Source: a virus
Virus record (IMG/VR): IMGVR_UViG_3300047160_007939
Span: 55,515 to 119,514 of that record
DNA length: 64,000 bases
Reading direction: 5' to 3' (one strand)
A program made the translations under genes and the position numbers. Every line of letters begins with the position of its first letter. Within the stretch, counting starts at the first letter, position 1. A model generated the notes under the pieces. It did no database searches. It had not been told where the DNA came from and saw only the letters and a list, made by a program, of their open reading frames with translations. Shown one piece after another: positions 1,435 through 56,269 of the stretch.

Positions 1435-1844
1435 CGGTTCTCTCGCGCGAAACGGCTCACTCCTACTCGTCGGTTCTCTTGACGATTGCGGCTCCGCTCC
1501 TACGGCTCGGTTCACTCCCAATGGACGGCTCGCTCCCAATGGACGGCTCGCTCCCAATGGACGGCTCTCTCCAGTACCTCGGCTCGCTCACGCGGCCCGG
1601 TTCTCTCTCTCCGCAGACGGCTCGCTCTCGATCTTCGGTTCTCTAGTACGGGTCGGCTCGCTGCGCTCATTCGGTTCTCACGCGCCATTCGGCTCCGCTA
1701 GGCTCTCTCGGTTCTCTCACCCCCACTGGCTCGCGCATAAGGTGCGGTTCTCTCCACCGACACCGGCTTGCTCACGACGTTCGGTTCCCTCCACTTCAGC
1801 GGCTCGCTTCTTCCACGCGGTTCACTCTTTAGCAACGGCTCACA
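1435..1844 (-). repeat. TIGR-like dual-repeat guide array 1 (23 repeats)
   Basis: + strand repeats CGGTTCTCT/CGGCTCGCT start at 1435,1453,1471,1489,1508,1526,1544,1562,1580,1598,1618,1636,1654,1672,1690,1709,1727,1745,1764,1782,1800,1818,1836, with ~9-nt variable spacers (18-nt period, 36-nt unit). Confidence 0.9.
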
Positions 1845-4800
1845 GGATGACACCCCCACGGCCACGGAGCTTGCCGATCTTACCGAGTGTATCACCCACT
1901 ACACTATACTCCGGTCGCGGGTCGTTCTCGTGATCCTTCCCCGTCATCTCCCTGCCGGCGAGGAACATCTGGTGATCGGCACGGTCGGTCCCCAGGTAGC
2001 TGATGTCCCCCACGTTGGCGTAGTAGGTCGCCGAGAGCTGCCACGCGATCATCTCGGCATCGCAGAGGTCTTTGGCTCCCTTTCCCCCATAGGCTGATGT
2101 AGCAGGGTGGTCGATCTTCCGGTTGTTGATGAGCTGCACCTCGCGGAGCTGGTTCCTGGCCCGCTCGTGCTGGGGGTAGCCCGGCTTTGCGGGGAGCAGC
2201 CAGAGCAGGTTGTTGTTCAGCAGCGTCTTACCGTTCCGGTACATCCCGAGCTGCTCCGGATTGGACATGTCTTTGGCATCGCAGGGGATGCCCCACGATC
2301 GTACTTCCTGGATGATGCTCTCCGCCTGCCAGCGGTCGAACTTCATACCACCGACACTGGCCCCGCCTGCTTGAACGACATCCACGAGCTGGCGGAGCAC
2401 ATCTCGCACGTTGCCGAAGTCCACGGCCAACCGGTTCCGTTTGTCGGGCTTCCACTCCAGGAGTAGATCCTCAACAACGACCGCACGTCGCTGCTCTTCA
2501 ATGATGTCGTTGCCGAGGAGGTCTTTCGCGTAGACGGGCGTTCCGTCGTCTTCGAGGCGTAGAACCTTCGGGGCGGCGATCTTCTGGCCCGTCTCTTCAG
2601 CCAGCCCCCAGAACTGGTCCTCATTCGCATTCGGAACTCTCCCGCAGTGGTCACAGCGCCACATCGACGGCTCCCACGGCTTCTTCCTGAAGAGCGGCTG
2701 CTTCTTCGGGTCACTGCTTCGCGGGATCTTCCTGGGCCGGTAATGCTTCGCGTAGCGGCGCTGCCGGATCAGCCAGCACGCCGGGCAGCACTTCCCACCC
2801 TCTTCGCTGGGGACGATGTGCGAGATACAAAGGGCGAAGCTGTCCTGCTCCAGCCCCGCGTCCCCACCCACGAAGTAGATGATGCCCGGCCTGATACGCC
2901 AGTCCGAGAGAAGGAGCGCCACGTAGCGGTGCGTCTGCTGGTCCGAGGTGAGGTGCTCGGTAACCGTGTTCTCCACCTGCGCCATCGGCTCGATCATCGC
3001 CCGCCTGCCGGCTGTCGCCGCTTCCTCGATCTTCTCCGGCTGGGAGATGAACGCGCCCTCGGCTGCCGGCGGGTTCGTCTCGTAGACTGCTTCGTAGAGG
3101 TCCGGGTCGTCGCGCTTCACCTGCGCCATCACCGGATCGGCTGCGTGCCACTCGCCGAGATAGTAGACCTTCTGCCAGTCGCGCCAGGGAATGACGATGC
3201 GCGTCGGAGCACGGTCGCCCCACCACTCGGGCGTGGCCCCGCCGAGGTTCTCACACTGCCGCAAGCCTCCCAGGATGAAGCCGTTCAGGGCGCGCGGCCA
3301 GGAAATGACGAAGCCCCACTGGAACGCGCCGAAGCGGTTACTGGTACGGAGCGTGTTGAAGCACGCCGTTGCCGCATCGTGGCCTTCGGCATCGCGGAGC
3401 GCATCCGCTTCATCCAGCACCCAGCCGAGGGTGTTCTTGCCTTCCGCGCTCTCGTTCTTCGAGTTCAGCGAGTGGACGCGCACGCAGGGAACCCGGTAGT
3501 CGTAGCCGGGCATCAGCTTCCAGAACTGCGTGACGTTGGCCTGGATGTCGCCTCGCGGCCCACGGTCGATCAAACCATCGAAGCAGGGCTTGCCGATGTG
3601 CCGAACGAAGCGGTCGTAGAAGTTGGACTTCGCGGCCCGAGCGTCCTGGGCCATGTTGATGAAGTCGAAGTAGTCGCCGTTGGCGTGCCGGAAGTGGACC
3701 CACGGATTGACCATCTGCTGGATCACCCACGCCGCATAAGCGTAGATCCAGGATACGAGGGTGTCTTTGCCCGAGTTGGCGTGTAACGTGCCCCCGGCAT
3801 CGAAGTAACAGTGTGTCCCACCCACGGTGAGGCTGTAGAAGTCCGCTACCCTGGTTGGCTCGATGGCGGTTATCTTGCTATACTTGGTGTATGCCAGTCC
3901 CACTAGACCACGAACTTCGCGCCCGTATCGTCGCCCTCTATGCCGAGGGGAAAAGCTCCCCCGAGATAGGCCGCATCGTAGGCAAGCACGCAGAGACGGT
4001 GCGCTATCACCTCCGAGGAGCCGGCGTGCGCGTCCGCACGAAGTCGGAAGCGAAGCTTCTGCTCGGACCCCGCCCACTGCCAACCCCCGTTGAAGTGATC
4101 GTCCAGGCTTACGAAGAGGGCTGGCCGCTAACCGCGCTATCCGCCGCGTTCGGCATCGCCGAAGAGACACTACGCCGACATCTCCATCGAGCCGAACTAA
4201 AGATGCGAGCGCGGGGCCATGTTCCGGGCCGCTACGCGCCGCAGATCGAAGAGGCAGGCGACTACGTGTCTGTGACGCGCCGCGATCACCCTCTTGCGGA
4301 CGCAAATGGACAGGTGATGGCACATCGGCTGGTAATGGAAGCGCACCTGGGGCGCTTCCTGACGGCTGAAGAGGTCGTCCACCACGAGAACGGCATCCGA
4401 GACGACAACCGGATCGAGAACTTACGCCTCTTCCCCAGCGACCGAGAACACGCTCTTCATCACTGGCAAGAGTGGAAGACGCGACAACTATCTCGTCCCC
4501 CACTTCCAGATCCACCAGCTTCTGCCAGCCAGCCGGCGAAAGAAAGCGATGCTCTCCCGTCACCTCGCTCTCCCGGCCATCCGCCAGCGTAACGCGATAG
4601 AGCTGGGCCGTGCCCTTCCGATAAACGGGTGACGCCTGCCGGTAAACGACGCGCTCCCCATCCCACGACCGCACCAGAAGCGGCGTGCCCAACTGCGCCC
4701 ACTCCCCCATCGTGCGCGTAATTCCCGTGACCGCCGTGCTATAATCAGTCAGAAGACTTGTCTTTGATGTGCAACCTTTGCCCCAGCACAGCCACGCCAC

Positions 4801-5103
4801 GTTGACGTGCCTCGGCCTGACGTACCAATCCGAGGCGTGCAGGCCGATGGACTGCTCTAGCGCCCACTCTTGCCGGGGGGTAAGCGGCGGATCGCCGAGG
4901 TACTGCGGGGAGGTGACGAACTCCGGCAAGCTGGGAATGTGCATCCCCACCGGCCACGGCCACTGCCGGAATGCCTTTCTCAGCATCTGCCGGCCAGCCG
5001 GCAGCGATGCCTCGCGGATGACGCTTGAGAGCGCGCCGCGCCGGATCGCCTCTTCTTTCATCTGCCGGCGCAGGTCTTCGAGCTGCGCTTCCGAGACGGG
5101 CAT
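1840..5103 (-). CDS. terL: terminase large subunit, interrupted by an intein
   Basis: Walker A GKG|SGKDT split by the intein, Walker B WVLDEAD, C-terminal RNase H-like nuclease motifs (FVGGDAG, KFDRWQ, KDLCDA). Confidence 0.85.
3876..3884 (+). promoter_or_regulatory. extended -10 promoter (TGcTATACT) for a leaderless antisense HNH mRNA
   Basis: TG-n-TATACT at 3876-3884, ATG at 3891, no Shine-Dalgarno; the same TGcTATACT occurs in the promoter at 31528-31536. Confidence 0.6.
3891..4592 (+). CDS. HNH homing endonuclease with two N-terminal HTH domains, antisense inside the intein
   Basis: HTH-like [19 protein letters not shown] and [19 protein letters not shown]; HNH motif [35 protein letters not shown]. 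Confidence 0.85.
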
Positions 5104-5260
5104 TCCTCACTCCGGGAGATTGGTTCCGGTAGCGTGTTCACTACCGGAACCGGCTTCTCCTACCTGCCAGCCGGCTGGCCGGCCTGCTGCATCGCCCAGA
5201 CGAAGAGGGCAAGCCCCCACGCCCAGACTACGAAGCAGCCCAGCACGACGTAGAACGCCT

Positions 5261-6700
5261 TCACGACGCTCCCACCGGCCCGTTGCGGTATCCCGCGCTG
5301 ATGTCAGAGAGCATCGCCCTGATCGTCTCGGTGTCGTCCGCGAACCGCTGGCGCTGTCTTTCGGCTTCGGCTTCCAGCTCTCCGATGCGCGCCTTCAGCC
5401 GGTCGTTCTCCGCCGCTATCTCTTTGGACGCCTCGTTGACCGCCTCAAGCGCGCCCCAGAGACGCACGCGCGGGTCCATCCCACCGATGAGCAGCAGCTC
5501 TCCGTGGCCGTTCCCTTCGTCCAACACGACGACGGACGTGTTGGCTTCCTCATCGTCGTGCCACTCCTCGGCTCGCTCTTCCTCCGGCTCTGTCTCATCC
5601 CAACCTGTGTTGGCAGGCGCGAAGACATCGCTCACGTCTACCGCTGCCAGTTCTTCCTCGGTCGGCGGCTCGAACTGGCGCTCGCTGTCAACGGTTCTCT
5701 CGATAGTAGCGGCTTGCTCGTGGATGTCGGTTCTCTCATCGTGGTCGGCTCGCTCGTCGGGGTCGGTTCTCTCCGGTCGGACGGCTCGCTCTTGCGGCTC
5801 GGTTCTCTCCACTGCACCGGCTCGCTCATCTGATACGGTTCCCTCGTCTACGACGGCTCCCAGAGCCTGCTGTGCCAGTTGGGTGGACAGGTCAGGGAGC
5901 GGGGCAAGCCCACACATCACCAGCGGATCGACGTTGAGTGCCGCCGACACCTGCTTCAACCGCTTCTGGCCGCAGCCGGTGTAGCGGCCATTCTCCCAAC
6001 AGTCGAGGCTGGCTTTGTTGATGCCGCTGATGTCGGCCAACCCCCAACGGGTCAGGCCGGCTCGCTCTCGCAGCTCGCGGAGCACGTCGCCGTCAACGTG
6101 CTCCAGGTCCTTCGGGGGTCCACGGTGGGCTGCCGGCTTGCTGGCCGGCTCGGGCAACACGGCGGCTGCGCCGTTCGGCTGGGGAGGCGCGGCATCCACC
6201 TCCTGAAGATACTCCACGTTGGTCTTCAGCACGCTCGCCAGCTTCGCCCACCGGTCGGGCATCGGGGTATACAGCCCCTTCTCCCAACAGCGGATGACTT
6301 CCGGCGAGACGCTCATCCGGCTCGCCACCTCACGCCGCTCCATCCCGGCATCCTTCCTCGCCTGGATGATCCGGTCAGGGTTCAGCGGCGGCACAGGCGA
6401 AGGGTCTTCCGTCGCACCCGTGCAGTAGTCCACGGACACGTCCAGGAGCTTGGCGACCTTCACCAGCATCCCGGTACGCATACTCCGCTCGTGCGTCTCC
6501 CATCGCTCAACCTGGGTCGCCATCCCGCTACTGTGGCCCAGCCTGCCGGCAAGCTGGGCGCGGGACCATCCCTTCTTCTGCCGGGCGTTGGTCATCCGCT
6601 CCGGCAGCGTTCGCAGTGTCGTCAGCAGCTCGGCGCGCGTGCCCGCCTGGGAAGGCGTGGGCGCGGGCCGGCCTGCGGCCTGGCCTGCGGCCTGGGTCAT
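5261..6700 (-). CDS. multi-domain XRE-family HTH regulator (three HTH domains, repeat linker, coiled coil)
   Basis: Three Cro/C1-type segments (ARQKKGWSRAQLA..WETHER, ARKDAGMERREVA..WEKG, LRERAGLTRWGLA..WENG); RBS AAAGGAG. Confidence 0.8.
   Translation of the reverse strand: MTQAAGQAAGRPAPTPSQAGTRAELLTTLRTLPERMTNARQKKGWSRAQLAGRLGHSSGMATQVERWETHERSMRTGMLVKVAKLLDVSVDYCTGATEDPSPVPPLNPDRIIQARKDAGMERREVASRMSVSPEVIRCWEKGLYTPMPDRWAKLASVLKTNVEYLQEVDAAPPQPNGAAAVLPEPASKPAAHRGPPKDLEHVDGDVLRELRERAGLTRWGLADISGINKASLDCWENGRYTGCGQKRLKQVSAALNVDPLVMCGLAPLPDLSTQLAQQALGAVVDEGTVSDERAGAVERTEPQERAVRPERTDPDERADHDERTDIHEQAATIERTVDSERQFEPPTEEELAAVDVSDVFAPANTGWDETEPEEERAEEWHDDEEANTSVVVLDEGNGHGELLLIGGMDPRVRLWGALEAVNEASKEIAAENDRLKARIGELEAEAERQRQRFADDTETIRAMLSDISAGYRNGPVGAS
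5692..5862 (-). repeat. TIGR-like array 2 (10 repeats), in frame inside the HTH regulator gene
   Basis: Repeats at 5692,5710,5728,5746,5764,5782,5800,5818,5836,5854 with exact 18-nt spacing and strict A/B alternation. Confidence 0.88.
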
Positions 6701-17414: not shown

Positions 17415-17596
17415 AGTCGCTCCATCTTGAAGCCGGCCTGCCGGCGCATCCAGACAATGAGCGCCGAAAAGGGCTTGCCCACGAAGCAGCGGACGATGGG
17501 TGCGGCTTCGATCACCATTCCGGCTCTCACCTTTACCCTCACCGTCATCTTCTCCGTGGACATCCACCACTCTGTTTCATCAGGCTGGGGCGTCAC
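17411..17596 (-). CDS. hypothetical protein
   Basis: Short coupled ORF (AAPIVRCFVGKP). Confidence 0.45.
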   Translation of the reverse strand: MTPQPDETEWWMSTEKMTVRVKVRAGMVIEAAPIVRCFVGKPFSALIVWMRRQAGFKMERL

Positions 17597-18776
17597 CTTC
17601 CAACCCCAGCCCGTCGAGCGCCGCTTTCGCCTCTTCCGGGTCCAGCTCCGGCTTGTACGTCCCGAGCTGCTGCGCCGCCAGCTCCCCCACCCGCGCCAGC
17701 TTGCCCTGGAAGTTGCCGCTCTTCCCTCTTGACGTTCTCACCACCCGATGGGCCGTGCGCTTCACCATCCGCAGCCGCCGGCCCTCATCAATCAGGCACT
17801 GCGCCTGAAGGTAACGGACGAGGTTCTGGAACCCACCCTCTCCCGTCACCGGACTGCCCAGCAGCTCCCGCTCCGCTTCGTCCAGCTCAATCTCCACCCA
17901 GATGTTGCCGACCCTCGGTCCTATCGGCTCGGGGAAGTGGTAGAAGAACCGGTGGCCGTGCGGATCGATGCAGATGTGCCAGTCCCGGCTCGCCTGCTCT
18001 TCCTCTGCCGGCTGGCCGGCTGTTGCGTCAGCCTCGGTCGGCTGCGGCGCTATCTCCCTGCCTGAAGCCGCTGCGCTCGCTTCGTCTGCCGCCGCTATCT
18101 CGGCATCAAAGTTCTCGTCAATGGCTGCCATCGCATCGAGAGCATCCATCGGTTCGAGGTCTTCGTGGCCGTTCATCGCTGCCTTTGCCAGCCTCTCCAG
18201 GTGGTCGCGCAGGCGCGTGTAGGGCTTGCCCAGGACGCGCTCACAGTGCTCCAGCCCCAGCTCCCTGCCGTACTCCATCGCCTGCCGGATACACTCCAGG
18301 TCGCACCAGACGTTCTCGGGATGCACCGGCAAGCCCCGCTTCTTCGAGAAGCGGCCTTCCAGGTCTTCCCGCGTTGGGTGACCGGCCAGCAGGGTGTAGC
18401 TCACTTCCCCCAGGCGACGAACGTGATGCCTGCGCCCCTCCATCCACTGCGCCGGCATCCCGTTCATCGCCGCGTTCCTGAACCAGCGGATGAGCGCGTT
18501 CTGGCTGTCGCTGAACACGCGCCCGCTCCACCCGTCAGGAAGTCCCCAGAGCGCCCGAGCAATCGCATAGAACTCCACCACGTTGTTGGAGACGGCAGGC
18601 AAGCCAATGGCTTCGGGCGTGAGGATGCCGCTCCGCTCGTGGAAGCGTCTCCCCTCGGCATCCAGGTAGCAGAACGCCCAGGTCCCGCCGAGGGGAGACG
18701 GGTTCACGCCCATCACCCCACCGTCTGCTACCACAGCCACAGGGATCTGCGCTTCGAGCTTCATCCGCTCGGCCAT
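17580..18776 (-). CDS. RNase HI-like protein with C-terminal extension
   Basis: RNase H catalytic pattern VADGG..SNNVVEFYA..VFSDSQ..GH..NVWCD. Confidence 0.7.
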   Translation of the reverse strand: MAERMKLEAQIPVAVVADGGVMGVNPSPLGGTWAFCYLDAEGRRFHERSGILTPEAIGLPAVSNNVVEFYAIARALWGLPDGWSGRVFSDSQNALIRWFRNAAMNGMPAQWMEGRRHHVRRLGEVSYTLLAGHPTREDLEGRFSKKRGLPVHPENVWCDLECIRQAMEYGRELGLEHCERVLGKPYTRLRDHLERLAKAAMNGHEDLEPMDALDAMAAIDENFDAEIAAADEASAAASGREIAPQPTEADATAGQPAEEEQASRDWHICIDPHGHRFFYHFPEPIGPRVGNIWVEIELDEAERELLGSPVTGEGGFQNLVRYLQAQCLIDEGRRLRMVKRTAHRVVRTSRGKSGNFQGKLARVGELAAQQLGTYKPELDPEEAKAALDGLGLEGDAPA

Positions 18777-18805
18777 CGCCGCATCTTCGACTTCGGTTCC
18801 GATGC

Positions 18806-20905
18806 TCACTCTTCGGACAGCTCCTTCCGCACCAACCGCCGCTCCCGCTTCGGAGCGTCTACCACCGTGTCCAGCTCCAGCCGCGCGCCCCGCTGCCGCT
18901 CCTGCCAAACCGAAGGCTTCGGCGGCGGGATCGGGTCGTTCGCCTTTGCGAAGGCGTAGGGTTCGAGCACCGCCTGGGCCGGCAGCCCGCACGCCTCGGC
19001 AAGATAGGCAATCGCGTCGTGGGTCCGCATCCCATCGAGCGCATCCGTGGGTGGGGTCCGCACCACGTTGTTACCCGCGTACCCCACCCCCACCGTCGAG
19101 ATGTCGGCGAGGCGCTGCGGCCTGGGCGCGCTCGGATCGGGCGCGTACCAGATGATACCGCGCCGCACGTCCACGAGCTTCACAGGCCGGTCGGTTATCT
19201 CCACCCCGTTCAAGAAGACCTTCACCTGATCGTGCCCCTGGAGCAGATAGGGCGCGGTGATCCGCTGCGCGTTGGCGAAGAGGTCGCAGGGATCCGGCAA
19301 GCCCGTCTCCCGGACCACCTCCACCCGGTCGGTGCTCTGGAGCGCCATCGTCGTCTGCCCGATGGTCAGGAATGCGCCAATCAAACTCGTGTCGTCGGGG
19401 TCCATTACTGCTGCCCCCCTCGCGTAGTTGTTGGTCAGGTTGCTCGGCACGGTGTCCGAGACGCCAGGGAAGAAGTGCTGCCACGTCAACCGCTGCCGCC
19501 GGAGCGCCACCGTCTTATTGATGCGCGAGAGCAGCGCCTGCCGCCGGTCGCTCGACTTCAACGCGCCGAGGTAGCCCTGGAACTGGCGGAGCTGCCCCAT
19601 CGTCCACCAGAAGCAGTTCTCGGTCGCCTCTTCAGGAGACAGCCCCCACCAGTCGTTGGTGAGCATGTGCCGCGCTTCGTCCACCACCTGCTGGGCAGCC
19701 CGGTACTCCAGCCGCGCCAGCTCAAGCGCCTTCTGGTGGCCCGTCTCCTTCCCGAAGACCGCTCGCCGCATCTCCTCGTCGCTCGGGAGAGCCGGCAGCT
19801 TCCGCTCCGGCCAGAGCCGCTCGGCCATCCGGCGCTGCGCCTCGGTGTTGCCGGGGTTCACCGGCTTATCCCAGGCGAACGGCTGCCCACCGTGGCGCAT
19901 ATCACCATCGCTCGCGGTCACGGTAAGATAGCCGTCGCCCTCGGTCCAGGTCGAGGCATTCTGGATGCCCTCAGCCAGCATCCGGTACGGACGGTGGCTG
20001 CTCCGCTGCACAATCTCGGAGAGCCGCTCCCTGGAGCGCACCTTCTGCATCAACGTCTTGATGGTGGTCGAGACTTGCTTCTCCTGGTTCTTGACCAGCT
20101 CCGTCTCTTTCTTCTGGCGCTCCCAGGCGATGGCGCGCTCACGCTTCTCGGCGCTGCTCATCGTGCCGCCCCTGACGTTGGTAACCGCATTCTGAAGTTG
20201 TGCTTCCCTGCTCCGCATCTCGGTTACCGCTACGTGCCACTTCGCCGTACCCGCAATCACCTCGTAGCCGGGGACCTGATCCAGCCCGCAGTCATTCGGA
20301 GCAAGCGCGTAGCCATCCCAACCAAAACTGACCTTCGAGGCTCCTTCCGGCTTGTGCCCATCGGGGCAGGTGATAATCTTGCCGGCCTGCTCGACATTCT
20401 TCAGCACGTACTGCTCGGTGGCCGCGAGCTGGGCAACGTCGGCGGGGGTTTCATTCCCCTGCGCCACCCGGTCCAGCAGCCGGTTCTCACTCGTGCCCAC
20501 AGCCGCCGGGTTCGGGTAAGTCCCGGAGAGGTCGCCGCCGGCTCCACCCGTCAGCGTAACCATCCCGCCGCTGCCTCCCTGTCCCGCCAGTGTCTGCTTC
20601 AACGTCTCGGCCAGCCGCTTCTCAATACTCGCAAAGTCGATGCTCCCGAACACGCTCGGGGCTTTGAACGCCACCTTCTTCGGCTCACTCTTCTTCTGCT
20701 CGTCCTTCAATTGCCGCAGTTGCTCTTCCAGCTCGTTCAGCTCCGCCTGCTCTTCGGCAAGCCCGATGAGCTGCATATCAATATCGACACTGCCTTCCGC
20801 CGTCCCCGCCGCTTCCTGGGCGAGCTGGGCGTCCGCACGGTCCAGGCACGCCTGGAGCAGCGGGTTCATCACCAGCGGCTTCAACTTCTTCTTGCTCTGC
20901 GCCAT
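18806..20905 (-). CDS. large hypothetical protein (coiled coils, one GGDLSGTYPNP motif)
   Basis: 699-aa ORF in operon. Confidence 0.6.
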   Translation of the reverse strand: MAQSKKKLKPLVMNPLLQACLDRADAQLAQEAAGTAEGSVDIDMQLIGLAEEQAELNELEEQLRQLKDEQKKSEPKKVAFKAPSVFGSIDFASIEKRLAETLKQTLAGQGGSGGMVTLTGGAGGDLSGTYPNPAAVGTSENRLLDRVAQGNETPADVAQLAATEQYVLKNVEQAGKIITCPDGHKPEGASKVSFGWDGYALAPNDCGLDQVPGYEVIAGTAKWHVAVTEMRSREAQLQNAVTNVRGGTMSSAEKRERAIAWERQKKETELVKNQEKQVSTTIKTLMQKVRSRERLSEIVQRSSHRPYRMLAEGIQNASTWTEGDGYLTVTASDGDMRHGGQPFAWDKPVNPGNTEAQRRMAERLWPERKLPALPSDEEMRRAVFGKETGHQKALELARLEYRAAQQVVDEARHMLTNDWWGLSPEEATENCFWWTMGQLRQFQGYLGALKSSDRRQALLSRINKTVALRRQRLTWQHFFPGVSDTVPSNLTNNYARGAAVMDPDDTSLIGAFLTIGQTTMALQSTDRVEVVRETGLPDPCDLFANAQRITAPYLLQGHDQVKVFLNGVEITDRPVKLVDVRRGIIWYAPDPSAPRPQRLADISTVGVGYAGNNVVRTPPTDALDGMRTHDAIAYLAEACGLPAQAVLEPYAFAKANDPIPPPKPSVWQERQRGARLELDTVVDAPKRERRLVRKELSEE

Positions 20906-53427: not shown

Positions 53428-56269
53428 TTAACCCTCCTCCAATCTTGCCGGCGTGCTGCTTCAGGATGCCGTCCCAGGTGACCGGCTCCTCGCTTCGCTC
53501 TGGCAACGCAGGCTGGTAGTTCACGTTGGCGACGAACGGGAACGCGAAGTTGAACGGCGTGATGTACTCCGCTCTGATGTTAGACCGAAAGCGCATCGAT
53601 CCTCCGAGGCAGGTCCAGACGAGTGAGTGGGCCATCACATAGAGTTGGTTCTGCCACACCCCGCTCTTGCTCTCCATCAGTTGGATCGACATCATCGGGA
53701 AGATGCCGGGTTGCATAAACGCCTCGAAGCCTGCCGAGTAGCCAGGGATCCGCATCATCCGGTAGTAGTTCAGGATGGCGCTCATCGCAAAGGGCAGGTT
53801 GGCGAACTTGCTGTCCATCTGCACGAAGGGCTTCCGGTAGCCGACATAGTTGAAGACGCCGGGCGAGTAGATGCTGTCGCTGTCGTTCGCCCAGGTCACG
53901 ATGGGGTTCCAGCCGCCGGCTCCGCCCACCGAGTTCACCCCGATCACCCGGAAGACGTTTCGGATGTCGTGGCCGTCCCAGGCAACCTCGGTGTTCCACA
54001 CCTCGGAGAGATTGGCTCCCTCGGGTCCGGTGGGAGCCTCGGTGTAGATGGCCTGCACCACGCCGGCCACCGGCGGGATCCACGGCTCGAAGTGGAAGTA
54101 GCCGTAGTTGTCGAAGTACATCAGAGCCTGGGCCGGCTGGCGGATGTAGTTGAGCAGGTCCATCACACTCGATACCCGGTCTACCGGGGTCCACGGCTTG
54201 CTGCCGAAGCCCATCGGCAGGAAGTAGCCCTGCTCCCCGGTCATCGGGTTATAGTTCGGGTCCGCTGGCGACACGCCGTCAGGATCGATCATCGCGTTCC
54301 AGTCGTCGCCGAGGGTTGTCTCCTGGCCGCTCATCGGGTCCACAGCCGGCACGAGGAAGCGGAAGGCCAGTTGGCTGGCGTGGAACCCGGCTACCTGGGC
54401 CAGATACGCGGCAGCGGCGTAGATGTTCCACCCATCCATATCCGGCGGGCTGAACGAGTAGCCGTCTTCGAGCTGGCCCATCTGGTCTTCGCAGTAGACG
54501 CGCAGGTTGGCCTGGGATGCCGAAGACCGCTCCCACTGGTAGCGGCGCGCTTTACCCACGAACCGTTGCGTCAGGCCCACGGGTGGGTCCGCGTACCCGA
54601 CGCTGAAGGAGACGGCACTCTCCCCGAAGGCTCCCGCCCACTCGCCGTGCTGGTTGTCCACCACGAAGGAGAAGGTGTGCCGGAGCGTCAGGTTCTGCTT
54701 GTCGAACTGCCAGTCTTCCTGCACCTCTTTCGGAATGAGCGCCCGAGCATTCGGGCCGAGGAGCTGATACCACGTCCCAGGCGCACCGATCCCTACTCTC
54801 GTGCATACGGCTGTTAAGTCAGCGTAATAGTCATCCGCCCACTGGATGGGCTGGCCGCTGGCGTCCGCAGCCGGCACGTTATAGATAGCGAGGTCGTACT
54901 GCTGGTCCTGGGAGTAGGACGACGTGCCGGGGGAGATGCCGCAGATGATCTGCGAGCCGTAGGGGAAAGCCAGGGTCCAGGGGTCGTAGCTGCCACGGAT
55001 CACCGCGTCCGAGATGCCGTTCATCCGGTAGACCAGCACCCCGTTCGTCGGCTCGCCCATGTTGATGGGCGTGCTGCGCCGCCACGCGAAGGTCCCCCAC
55101 TTGCAGAGGTGCGCGGCAGCCGAGAGATAGGTGAAGTTGGAAACCTGGACGGAAATCTCGGTGATGCGCGGCTCCTCGGAGTAGGGGATGTCGTACTCGA
55201 TGAGCACCGGCGTCGTCATCCCGCCGATGGAGACGCGCATCGTGAAGTTCAGGTAGAGCACCGAGACGACCGTGTAGTAGCCGCCGTCATCGGTGGTGTC
55301 GCTGGCCGTCCACTTGTACTGGTCGCTCTCGTTCTGGCTGGGCTTGACGCCGGCCACCAGGGTCTTCCACGTCTCCCCCTGGTCCACCGAGTACTGGATC
55401 TTCGGCAGGTCCCCACTGGTGAGGAGAGCCGAGAACATCACTCCTTTGCTCGGGTCCATCGAGCTGCTCTGGCCCCGCTGTCCCCGGTACGGAGGCAGGT
55501 TCCAGTTGCAACGGCACTGGCTCGGTACGCCTCCGTCGATGCTGGCTGGATCCCAGCCGACAAAGAAGGTCACTCCCTGCGCCTGGGCATTCTCGGTCTG
55601 GTCGCCCTGACCGCCGGTCCCACCGCTCCCGCCGGTGGTGTCGCGGGGAGTTCCGGCCTGCCGGCTTTTCCGGCTCCGCCGCCGGTAGCGGCGCATCTGG
55701 GGCGTGCCCGGTCCCCCGAACCCGCCGCCACCGCTGCCGCTGCCGTCGCTGCTGCCGCCTGTTCCGCTGCCCTGTGAGAAGCCGGTGAGCGGCGCGTATA
55801 TCTGGGCGAAGTTAGTCTGGTCGTCTGCCGAGGGGGTCCAGCTTCCGTTCGGCTCGATGCTGATCATATCCCCGCCCGGCGGGTGCGAGCCGGGGTCTCC
55901 GATCACCGTCGCCTCGTCGCCGGCATTGTCCAGCCCCACATCGAAGTTGAGCGGGAGGTCGCCCGAGCTGGGATCATCGCCGCCGCTGTCGTAGAACCAC
56001 GTCAACAGCTCGGGCGTGTCTCCCATATCGTTGACGATGGACGTGCCCGAGCCGGAGCTGTCGTAAATCTGCTGGCCGTGCGGCACGAAGATCGGTGTCG
56101 GCATACAGCCGGTGGCGTAGCCATCGATCTTGAGCTGGTCGCCGTCATCGGTGTTGCCCACCCCGAAGCTCATCGCGTAGTCGGAGACGATGATGCTGGG
56201 CGTCTGCTGAAGCGGAAAGACCGCTCCCACGGCATCCACCAGCAGCTCTCCGATGGGTACGGCTTTCAC
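53387..56269 (-). CDS. large tail/baseplate hub-like protein
   Basis: About 960 aa, G/D/S/T-rich, downstream of the tape-measure-like gene; YFDNYGYFHF..IRNVFRVIG resembles tail hub proteins. Confidence 0.55.
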   Translation of the reverse strand: MKAVPIGELLVDAVGAVFPLQQTPSIIVSDYAMSFGVGNTDDGDQLKIDGYATGCMPTPIFVPHGQQIYDSSGSGTSIVNDMGDTPELLTWFYDSGGDDPSSGDLPLNFDVGLDNAGDEATVIGDPGSHPPGGDMISIEPNGSWTPSADDQTNFAQIYAPLTGFSQGSGTGGSSDGSGSGGGGFGGPGTPQMRRYRRRSRKSRQAGTPRDTTGGSGGTGGQGDQTENAQAQGVTFFVGWDPASIDGGVPSQCRCNWNLPPYRGQRGQSSSMDPSKGVMFSALLTSGDLPKIQYSVDQGETWKTLVAGVKPSQNESDQYKWTASDTTDDGGYYTVVSVLYLNFTMRVSIGGMTTPVLIEYDIPYSEEPRITEISVQVSNFTYLSAAAHLCKWGTFAWRRSTPINMGEPTNGVLVYRMNGISDAVIRGSYDPWTLAFPYGSQIICGISPGTSSYSQDQQYDLAIYNVPAADASGQPIQWADDYYADLTAVCTRVGIGAPGTWYQLLGPNARALIPKEVQEDWQFDKQNLTLRHTFSFVVDNQHGEWAGAFGESAVSFSVGYADPPVGLTQRFVGKARRYQWERSSASQANLRVYCEDQMGQLEDGYSFSPPDMDGWNIYAAAAYLAQVAGFHASQLAFRFLVPAVDPMSGQETTLGDDWNAMIDPDGVSPADPNYNPMTGEQGYFLPMGFGSKPWTPVDRVSSVMDLLNYIRQPAQALMYFDNYGYFHFEPWIPPVAGVVQAIYTEAPTGPEGANLSEVWNTEVAWDGHDIRNVFRVIGVNSVGGAGGWNPIVTWANDSDSIYSPGVFNYVGYRKPFVQMDSKFANLPFAMSAILNYYRMMRIPGYSAGFEAFMQPGIFPMMSIQLMESKSGVWQNQLYVMAHSLVWTCLGGSMRFRSNIRAEYITPFNFAFPFVANVNYQPALPERSEEPVTWDGILKQHAGKIGGGLSANPKHRPAAAAV

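Follow-up and report, generated by a model that had tools for sequence, protein, structure and literature searches.

We analysed 64,000 nucleotides of viral DNA, positions 55,515 to 119,514 of the IMG/VR virus record IMGVR_UViG_3300047160_007939 (this whole stretch is here called the window), and found that a gene for a candidate terminase large subunit (TerL) very probably houses a composite selfish element. In this element an intein in the TerL P-loop and a homing endonuclease gene antisense to it share one stretch of DNA. The nuclease gene is of the HTH-HTH-HNH type, that is, it combines two helix-turn-helix (HTH) units with an HNH nuclease core. The source is a 119.5-kb record with direct terminal repeats and a GC content of 64%. 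The original prediction for this DNA had described an intein of 333 amino acids (aa) that splits the Walker A motif of TerL, and had read its Arg/Gly/Ser-rich, stop-free middle as the antisense of an intact HTH-HTH-HNH gene at 3891-4592. Both descriptions hold: the insert lies in the P-loop, is missing from five of five homologues and is modelled with a HINT fold, and the nature of the middle is borne out by Pfam matches, by its composition and by the count of zero stops. The parts of the element and of its host gene are as follows, with the support for each in brackets; GC3 is the GC content at third codon positions and pLDDT a predicted local distance difference test score.

1840..5103, minus strand: TerL-like P-loop gene, encoding a precursor of 1087 aa (open reading frame list, homologues, tblastn)
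4774..5103, minus strand: N-extein, ending in ...WLCWGKG (homologue alignment)
3775..4773, minus strand: intein, 333 aa, from Cys1 to His-Ala-Asn, followed by Ser (insertion, profile, model)
4474..4773, minus strand: intein N-lobe, aa 1-100, with block B T-G-E-H (pLDDT 82-98 in 10-residue blocks; Ssp DnaB alignment over 46-98; terL-frame GC3 0.71)
3898..4473, minus strand: intein linker, aa 101-292, the antisense reading of the HNH gene, predicted to be disordered (model, composition, GC3)
3775..3897, minus strand: intein C-lobe, aa 293-333, with blocks F and G (model, alignments including 1mi8)
1840..3774, minus strand: C-extein, starting with SGKD... (homologue alignment)
3855..3884, plus strand: putative promoter-like site TTGGCT-18 nt-TG-n-TATACT, inside C-lobe codons (scan, geometry in relatives)
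3891..4592, plus strand: HNH homing endonuclease gene of the free-standing type, 233 aa, HTH-HTH-HNH_3, antisense to the intein (Pfam, PHROG, alignment)
3903..4016, plus strand: first HTH unit, aa 5-42 (HTH_23, HTH_38, HTH_20)
4092..4208, plus strand: second HTH unit, aa 68-106 (Sigma70_r4_2 over 68-105, Sigma70_r4, HTH_28)
4317..4439, plus strand: HNH_3 nuclease core, aa 143-183, followed by His187 (Pfam, alignments A2 and A4)
4474..4592, plus strand: Pro/Ser/Ala-rich tail of the HNH reading frame, over the antisense of the intein N-lobe (GC3)

The minus-strand open reading frame (ORF) at 1840..5103 runs through its 1087 aa without interruption, intein included. A search of a large protein collection with the host protein returned six proteins, namely P0003 and five homologues of 737-820 aa that are 84, 57, 50, 48 and 43% identical to it. 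In the alignment with these five homologues the 333-aa insert (3775-4773, minus strand) sits exactly between ...WGKG and SGKD..., inside the P-loop, while all five are contiguous through WGKG-SGKD. P0003 is the gene call of the source itself; it has 687 aa and is 100% identical to the terL product's C-terminal part. As P0003 comprises only this part, automatic annotation apparently cut terL short at the antisense HNH gene. The evidence on the identity of the host protein is modest and suggests that it is TerL-like. A tblastn comparison with the annotated TerL of Rhodococcus phage Weasels2 gave an E-value of 6e-10 over about 180 aa. Terminase large subunit is also the name given to the atlas neighbours of the host protein, which carry PF27249 MJ0330_N (score 0.98, TM 0.61), PF27249 being the precomputed family of the five intein-less homologues, and several of these neighbour clusters are also intein-bearing. 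Neither the exteins nor the homologues P0004 and P0005 gave a terminase match in Pfam or PHROG, and the sequence profile of the host family found chance matches only in the PDB.

The insert starts with Cys as its residue 1 and ends in ...T-L-H-A-N, followed by Ser. It has the residues of a class-1 intein (Cys1, Asn333 and Ser+1), and in a 12-row alignment of the window insert with 11 relatives (alignment A3) Cys1 and Asn333 are invariant. So is His75 in block B (T72-G-E-H75), which aligns with the TANH of the Ssp DnaB mini-intein. When a profile was built from the insert and its 11 relatives, it matched solved DnaB and RecA mini-inteins in two stretches, with E-values from 1e-21 to 1e-16. An AlphaFold2 model of the intein was built from the 12-row alignment, and its block means of pLDDT are 82-98 for residues 1-100, 74 for residues 291-300 and 94-98 for residues 301-333. 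When this model was compared with about 48,000 solved chains, 31 matched at a Z-score of at least 8, nearly all of them inteins or HINT domains. The best matches are the NpuDnaB intein, at Z 22.7 and a root-mean-square deviation of 1.4 Å over 137 of 142 residues, and, at Z 20.6, the splicing domain of Mtu RecA. For residues 101-290 the block means are 33-44; nearly all of the linker stays below 50, as do 186 residues in the whole model, and a short helix at 104-111 is its sole secondary structure. The composition of the linker (residues 101-294) is 76% Arg, Gly, Ser, Pro, Ala and Leu, and 38 Arg and Lys stand against 12 Asp and Glu, which gives a net charge of about +26. Judged by the model, the insert is an intein with a predicted HINT fold that is assembled from its two ends, and the two lobes, which are in frame, are modelled as one HINT domain.

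By sequence, the only nuclease of this intein is a separate and intact HNH gene on the opposite strand. Pfam HNH_3 matches residues 143-183 of its product with 48.1 bits (cut-off 24.8), HTH_23 matches with an E-value of 3.8e-10, and the best E-value among the PHROG HNH endonuclease families is 1e-21. His165, Asn173, Asn177 and His187 are invariant among 13 family members and His164 is nearly so, and the window protein keeps all residues that are invariant in the 13. As a single sequence it found no match in the PDB; most matches of the HNH profile were to helical repeats and fell in the HTH part, and the match to I-HmuI (1u3e) had an E-value of only 0.072. In Pectobacterium phage Ymer (L213:2453-3151) and in L050 the EVVHH motif has Asp in place of its first His (EVVDH), a residue that is nearly invariant in the family. 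We considered whether the 'SE.D' tails that HNH homologues share are a motif of the protein; reading frames that run on across the antisense of block B in the intein account for them better.

The coding signature switches strand at the lobe borders. In the middle region GC at codon positions 1/2/3 is 0.77/0.44/0.69 in the HNH frame and 0.76/0.70/0.44 in the terL frame, and in the lobes and exteins the terL-frame GC3 is 0.71-0.85. Over 4461-4592 the HNH-frame GC3 is 0.455 and not coding-like; there the intein frame is the coding-like one. The last approximately 40 HNH codons (4474-4592) thus lose the coding signature, and the functional overlap of the two proteins is therefore small. Across the 233 HNH codons the terL frame has no stop, while the other two antisense frames have 8 and 9 and the expectation is 4.7-6.0; in the 28 gene-like ORFs of the window, stops occur in the equivalent antisense frame at a rate of 0.0217 per codon. 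The probability that the terL frame is open was 0.0047 by synonymous resampling with the codon usage of the window, 0.002 with the gene's own usage and 0.0006 by codon-order shuffling. It had been proposed that about 700 bp must stay open on both strands, and the empty frame (P 0.0006-0.005) agrees with this, as do all 55 relatives described below. From the window alone the double open frame is likely, not certain.

Comparison across the family is decisive here. Scans with the HNH protein or with its alignments gave 206 loci, the best matches of each scan, of which 6 and 80 are in viral contigs, 80 in metagenomes and 40 in genomes. Over all six-frame ORFs of these loci we ran one profile for each of the two lobes and one for the HNH protein. 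All 206 have an HNH match at an E-value of 1e-5 or below. At 55 of them the HNH gene is flanked by both intein lobes, which lie on the opposite strand; no lobe is near the remaining 151, and neither a lobe on the HNH strand nor a single lobe occurred. Homologues with a broken terL frame had been named as the observation that would point to an intron or a split gene. None was found, and in 55 of 55 cases a single uninterrupted ORF contains the two lobes. The frame relation is likewise identical in all 55, with HNH codon position 1 opposite intein position 1. The host frame has zero stops in every one of them and the other two antisense frames have 0-16, at a locus GC of 0.28-0.69. Codon-order shuffles of 14 elements gave 5-11 expected stops and a probability of an open frame of at most 0.003 for each.

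The 55 elements form 42 clusters at 90% HNH identity and 38 at 70%, several of them being the same contig from two collections. The copy in the window is divergent, its lobes being at most 38% and its HNH protein at most 46% identical to those of any other element. Distances between lobes and distances between HNH proteins correlate over 41 elements (Mantel r 0.41, a value reached in 0 of 2000 permutations), and close relatives help to drive this correlation. A codon-aligned frame would be easier to keep open because synonymous changes suffice; the uniform offset therefore seems not to be forced, and we read it as a sign of shared descent. This bears on the suggestion in the original prediction that a free-standing HNH gene had invaded a mini-intein in reverse orientation. 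Such an invasion would not have taken place in this phage, and the offset common to 55 of 55 elements makes it look like an old event that the whole family shares.

The target of the family can be read from the exteins. In 47 of the 55 C-exteins GK occurs within the first 8 residues, mostly as [ST]GK[ST]. Six further C-exteins have variants of this motif (SSKT, SCKT, SSKS, SGTTT twice, or GK just before the intein), and L004 and L005, which are one element, are inserted before a Walker-B-like GFDE. The hosts that Pfam could name are terminase large subunits, Strawberry-notch-like and other superfamily 2 (SF2) helicases, an AAA+ ATPase, and AAA_33 and AAA_25 proteins. As judged from these host sequences, this is a large family that targets the P-loops of terminases, helicases and other NTPases.

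Selection acts on both frames. The original prediction had called for a comparison of the two strands in homologues, and we followed the phase of substitutions in four independent close pairs of relatives of the window copy (L137/L142, L152/L163, L146/L151 and L155/L141). Summed over the four pairs, the differences at intein codon positions 1/2/3 are 25/15/90 in the N-lobe, 36/136/35 in the middle and 5/5/33 in the C-lobe. Intein position 2 is HNH position 3, and the lobes are therefore constrained as intein codons and the middle as HNH codons. Ten other pairs follow the same trend, which fades with divergence. In these relatives purifying selection thus acts on the lobes in the intein frame and on the middle in the HNH frame.

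The start of the nuclease gene lies among codons of the C-lobe. An extended -10 element, TGcTATACT, is present at 3876-3884 as had been described; between the end of its -10 box and the ATG at 3891 there are 6 nt, a leaderless geometry, and the antisense of the promoter-like site reads K-Y-S-K in the intein. A promoter scan of 3500-5300 found this site only, with 0.1 expected from shuffles. In the relatives a TANNNT box stands exactly 6 nt before 10 of 47 candidate ATGs (39 elements), where the mean over offsets 0-30 is 1.7 per offset. Most other elements have a Shine-Dalgarno-like word 5-12 nt upstream of a candidate start. Around the end of the HNH gene, at 4560-4700, there is no unusual fold (z 0.82). 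The claim that the HNH gene has its own promoter gains from the sigma-70-like site and from the recurrent spacing in relatives, and both support it indirectly. Taken together, the start patterns fit an independently expressed HNH gene that would be leaderless in part of the family.

A number of observations weigh against an active element of this kind, and some of them concern the intein. Its penultimate His is Ala, so that it ends in H-A-N as had been noted; of the 11 aligned relatives, 8 end in H-H-N and a ninth in N-H-N. Ser replaces the Asp of block F, which is present in at least 90% of alignment A3 and in 1mi8; both residues replaced here usually help catalysis. Pfam Intein_splicing scores 29.0 bits on the insert alone, below its cut-off of 35.8, over residues 49-327 and with a gap between the two matching ends, and the insert sequence alone reached an E-value of 0.005 in the PDB (Ssp DnaB mini-intein, residues 46-98 and 297-327). 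The deviant residues in block F and at the penultimate position weaken the case for efficient splicing, not that for membership in the inteins. Inteins without the penultimate His or the block-F Asp can still splice.

A second point of this kind concerns the open frame. In this genome of 64% GC, one of the 28 window genes, a 470-aa minus-strand gene at 17583..18992, also has an open run of at least 233 codons in the same antisense frame. This run is a chance one of 299 codons, and the plus-strand ORFs of this control (250 and 264 aa) are rich in Pro, Arg, Ser and Ala and look like GC-rich, non-coding junk. Long chance antisense ORFs do therefore occur, and together with the gene call of the source, which stops short at P0003, they speak for a terL that is fractured, split or intron-bearing, its halves being made separately and its frame open by chance in a GC-rich genome. 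We regard this as scarcely credible, since the frame has no stop where about five are expected, 55 of 55 relatives keep one frame at a GC content as low as 0.28, and the lobes are in frame and model as a single HINT domain.

The remaining points concern the nuclease. The evidence on substitution phase comes from relatives instead of the window copy; a viral-contig scan with the C-extein for close DNA homologues gave no match, and a 60%-identical HNH protein (P0010) was not among the matches of one metagenome scan. The promoter-like site is a match to a sigma-70-like consensus only, and 3500-5300 holds no terminator-like site. None of the 24 listed runs that contain the stretch is RNA, and we infer transcription, translation and splicing. 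In favour of the element, four of four soil runs have the intein-bearing allele in their contigs, and a joint that bypasses the intein was not seen. Among these runs there are seven single-base variants, five of them in the stretch shared by both frames. Of these five, two leave the HNH protein unchanged and three alter it; none introduces a stop in either frame, and they are too few to weigh. One of the variants, T>A at window position 4360 in one soil run, changes HNH Leu157, which is invariant in 13 members, to Gln and is silent in the intein frame. This L157Q variant may mean that the nuclease is decaying in one strain, or it may be an error in the contig.

Several of these points would also suit an intein that is functional while its antisense HNH gene has become a silent relic in this phage, on the way to a mini-intein, the promoter match being fortuitous. 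The variant at an invariant residue and the runs, all of them non-RNA, are in line with this. So is the C-terminus of the window protein, which is without the CPxWTxEG extension common to most relatives, and the failure to see an intein-less allele in the four soil runs would fit fixation, and a fixed element can do without a homing nuclease. We nevertheless think a relic unlikely. The ORF of 233 codons is intact with every family-invariant residue in place, its GC3 of 0.69 is coding-like, the spacing between -10 box and ATG recurs at nine other candidate starts in relatives, and in relatives the HNH frame is clearly under purifying selection. An intact antisense homing gene thus remains the reading that we prefer.

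An argument on splicing comes from cultured phages. Pectobacterium phage Ymer (OP748252.2) has a 754-aa coding sequence (CDS), annotated as 'hypothetical protein', directly before the portal gene, and in it Terminase_6N and Terminase_6C both score above their cut-offs. This CDS contains a 288-aa intein at ...GFG|C...HHN|TGKS..., and on the opposite strand an unannotated 232-aa HNH_3 ORF with the same frame offset as in the family. The intein frame has no stop across the HNH ORF, against 7 expected, at 48% GC. Seven further phage records are similar to Ymer. The main text of the Ymer phage paper has no occurrence of intein, HNH or endonuclease. Phages of the Ymer type are cultured and grow lytically, and their precursors must therefore give a working terminase. 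By analogy, this lytic growth is the best indirect argument that inteins of this class splice.

For the window element we infer a course of events that runs from splicing and transcription at the embedded promoter to specific cleavage and homing. A class-1-type intein made of an N-lobe of 100 aa and a C-lobe of about 40 aa would splice out of the TerL precursor and rejoin the WGKG-SGKD P-loop. Between the lobes, at the usual place of an in-frame nuclease, it would carry about 190 aa of disordered filler, the antisense translation of the HNH gene, and the nuclease gene would have to avoid antisense stops in the terL frame. The codons of the C-lobe would hold the signals at which the nuclease gene starts, here a leaderless ATG preceded at 6 nt by a -10 box with the TG extension, so that the nuclease could be made from its own transcript. 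The nuclease would then cut the intein-less P-loop alleles of co-infecting relatives, and repair would copy intein and nuclease gene in as one unit. A broader proposal is more tentative, and we hold it to be slightly more doubtful than probable: the elements may form one old and widespread lineage of P-loop inteins in which the HNH gene is permanently antisense and started from C-lobe codons. Nuclease synthesis would then be independent of the late terminase message and possibly earlier, and the transcript could act as antisense RNA on terL.

The HNH protein might instead have been co-opted for a phage function other than homing, for instance as a terminase-associated packaging nuclease. HNH genes that adjoin terminase genes are common in phages, and the HNH gene of Rhodococcus phage Weasels2 is annotated as 'terminase associated' directly after TerL. 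However, besides terminases the unit of intein and HNH gene occupies helicases, AAA+ ATPases and kinases, which suits a mobile element better than a packaging factor, and HTH-HTH-HNH_3 is the build of free-standing homing-type nucleases. We consider a packaging role very improbable and keep to a homing nuclease.

The layout as such has precedents, as antisense LAGLIDADG and VSR-like nucleases in inteins are already in print. Inteins with an antisense LAGLIDADG ORF are those of Synechocystis DnaX and of a SpoVR-like protein from Chloroflexus (credited to Gorbalenya 1998 and Gogarten et al. 2002 in bioRxiv 10.1101/2025.01.02.630785). Gosselin, Arsenault and Gogarten (2025, the same preprint) describe antisense LAGLIDADG and VSR-like nucleases in inteins, distinguish four types of non-canonical inteins, propose that free-standing nuclease genes invaded inteins and predict that such inteins are under-annotated; in the available part of their text HNH is listed only as an in-frame domain. 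A full-text literature search found no report of an antisense HNH intein, and the supplements of that preprint might hold more. The element would thus be an HNH version of an antisense-nuclease layout that has been described before, and the HNH type appears to be new.

Similarities to the antisense LAGLIDADG inteins, as far as these are presented there, are the nuclease on the opposite strand between the splicing blocks, the open intein frame and an in-frame middle without recognisable structure. In contrast to them, the nuclease is here HTH-HTH-HNH_3, the family is large and targets P-loops in many host genes, and start signals recur inside the codons of the C-lobe. The phage inteins in the available part of the Gosselin survey also lie often in the terminase large subunit and have their nuclease in a separate reading frame; an antisense HNH gene falls outside the four non-canonical types given there. 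With canonical bifunctional inteins, whose LAGLIDADG or HNH domain is in frame (for example PI-PfuI, PI-SceI and TliVMA), the element shares the HINT fold (Z 17.8 to 1dq3 and 18.6 to 7qsu), the extra DNA at the same place between the lobes and, presumably, the homing logic. However, the splicing domain and the nuclease are here separate proteins encoded on opposite strands and do not form one polypeptide, and synthesis of the nuclease would be independent of translation of the host gene. Dassa et al. (2009, PMC2677866) describe split inteins in fractured genes that carry a free-standing endonuclease gene between the halves. There, too, a nuclease gene of the free-standing type sits between intein halves in a host gene, but by that account the host is in two ORFs and spliced in trans, whereas the frame is continuous here and in 55 of 55 relatives. 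The free-standing HNH_3 genes of Halobacterium phage phiH (PhiH1_365) and of the podovirus MW202481 have the same build of HTH and HNH, with 41% identity over residues 125-230 and 29.5% over 1-180, but they lie between same-strand genes with no intein around. We had considered the HNH matches in Rhodococcus phage Shagrat, Pseudomonas phage BILI, phiH and MW202481 as further cases and set them aside as ordinary same-strand free-standing genes.

Some further observations were made at the loci and in the source phage. Three terminase genes carry a second, downstream intein (Hint_2 or LAGLIDADG_3) besides the one in the P-loop (L024:83-3685, L120:3-3479 and L137:3-3476). At L020, L031, L055, L069, L037, L060, L073 and others, antisense frames of 240-340 aa span the whole HNH match, in some cases at a GC content of 0.35-0.45; the lobe profiles find nothing at loci of the L020 type, which could be other intein families, short contigs or chance. 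At L200:3-3275 one stop-free frame of 1091 aa comprises an intein-bearing Terminase_3 protein and, from residue 800, a P22-like portal protein, the two being either fused or adjacent without an intervening stop. In the window, just upstream of terL and on the same strand, 5261-6700 encodes a 479-aa protein with several XRE-type HTH repeats, which matches PHROG transcriptional regulator families with a best E-value of 2e-32. About 5 kb before the start of the window the same phage has a second, unrelated free-standing HNH gene (L209:1370-1948; phrog_2255, E-value 3e-33), and it also has an endolysin-like gene (L209:4241-4993).

Inteins with an antisense nuclease are no curiosity, as they make up about a quarter of the sampled HNH_3 relatives (55 of 206). 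Annotation overlooks the layout: the terL product was cut to 687 aa in the source of the window, and the CDS in Ymer is only a 'hypothetical protein'. The element is also a natural demonstration that an intein tolerates, in the place of the nuclease, a sequence of some 190 residues that is arbitrary and disordered. Two strands share about 700 bases in such a way that each functional part lies opposite the filler of the other, and the sole constraint between them is the avoidance of stops. The element supports the model of intein evolution in which the splicing domain comes first and the nuclease invades later, and the cultured phages offer a system for testing whether separate expression of the nuclease alters the dynamics of homing.

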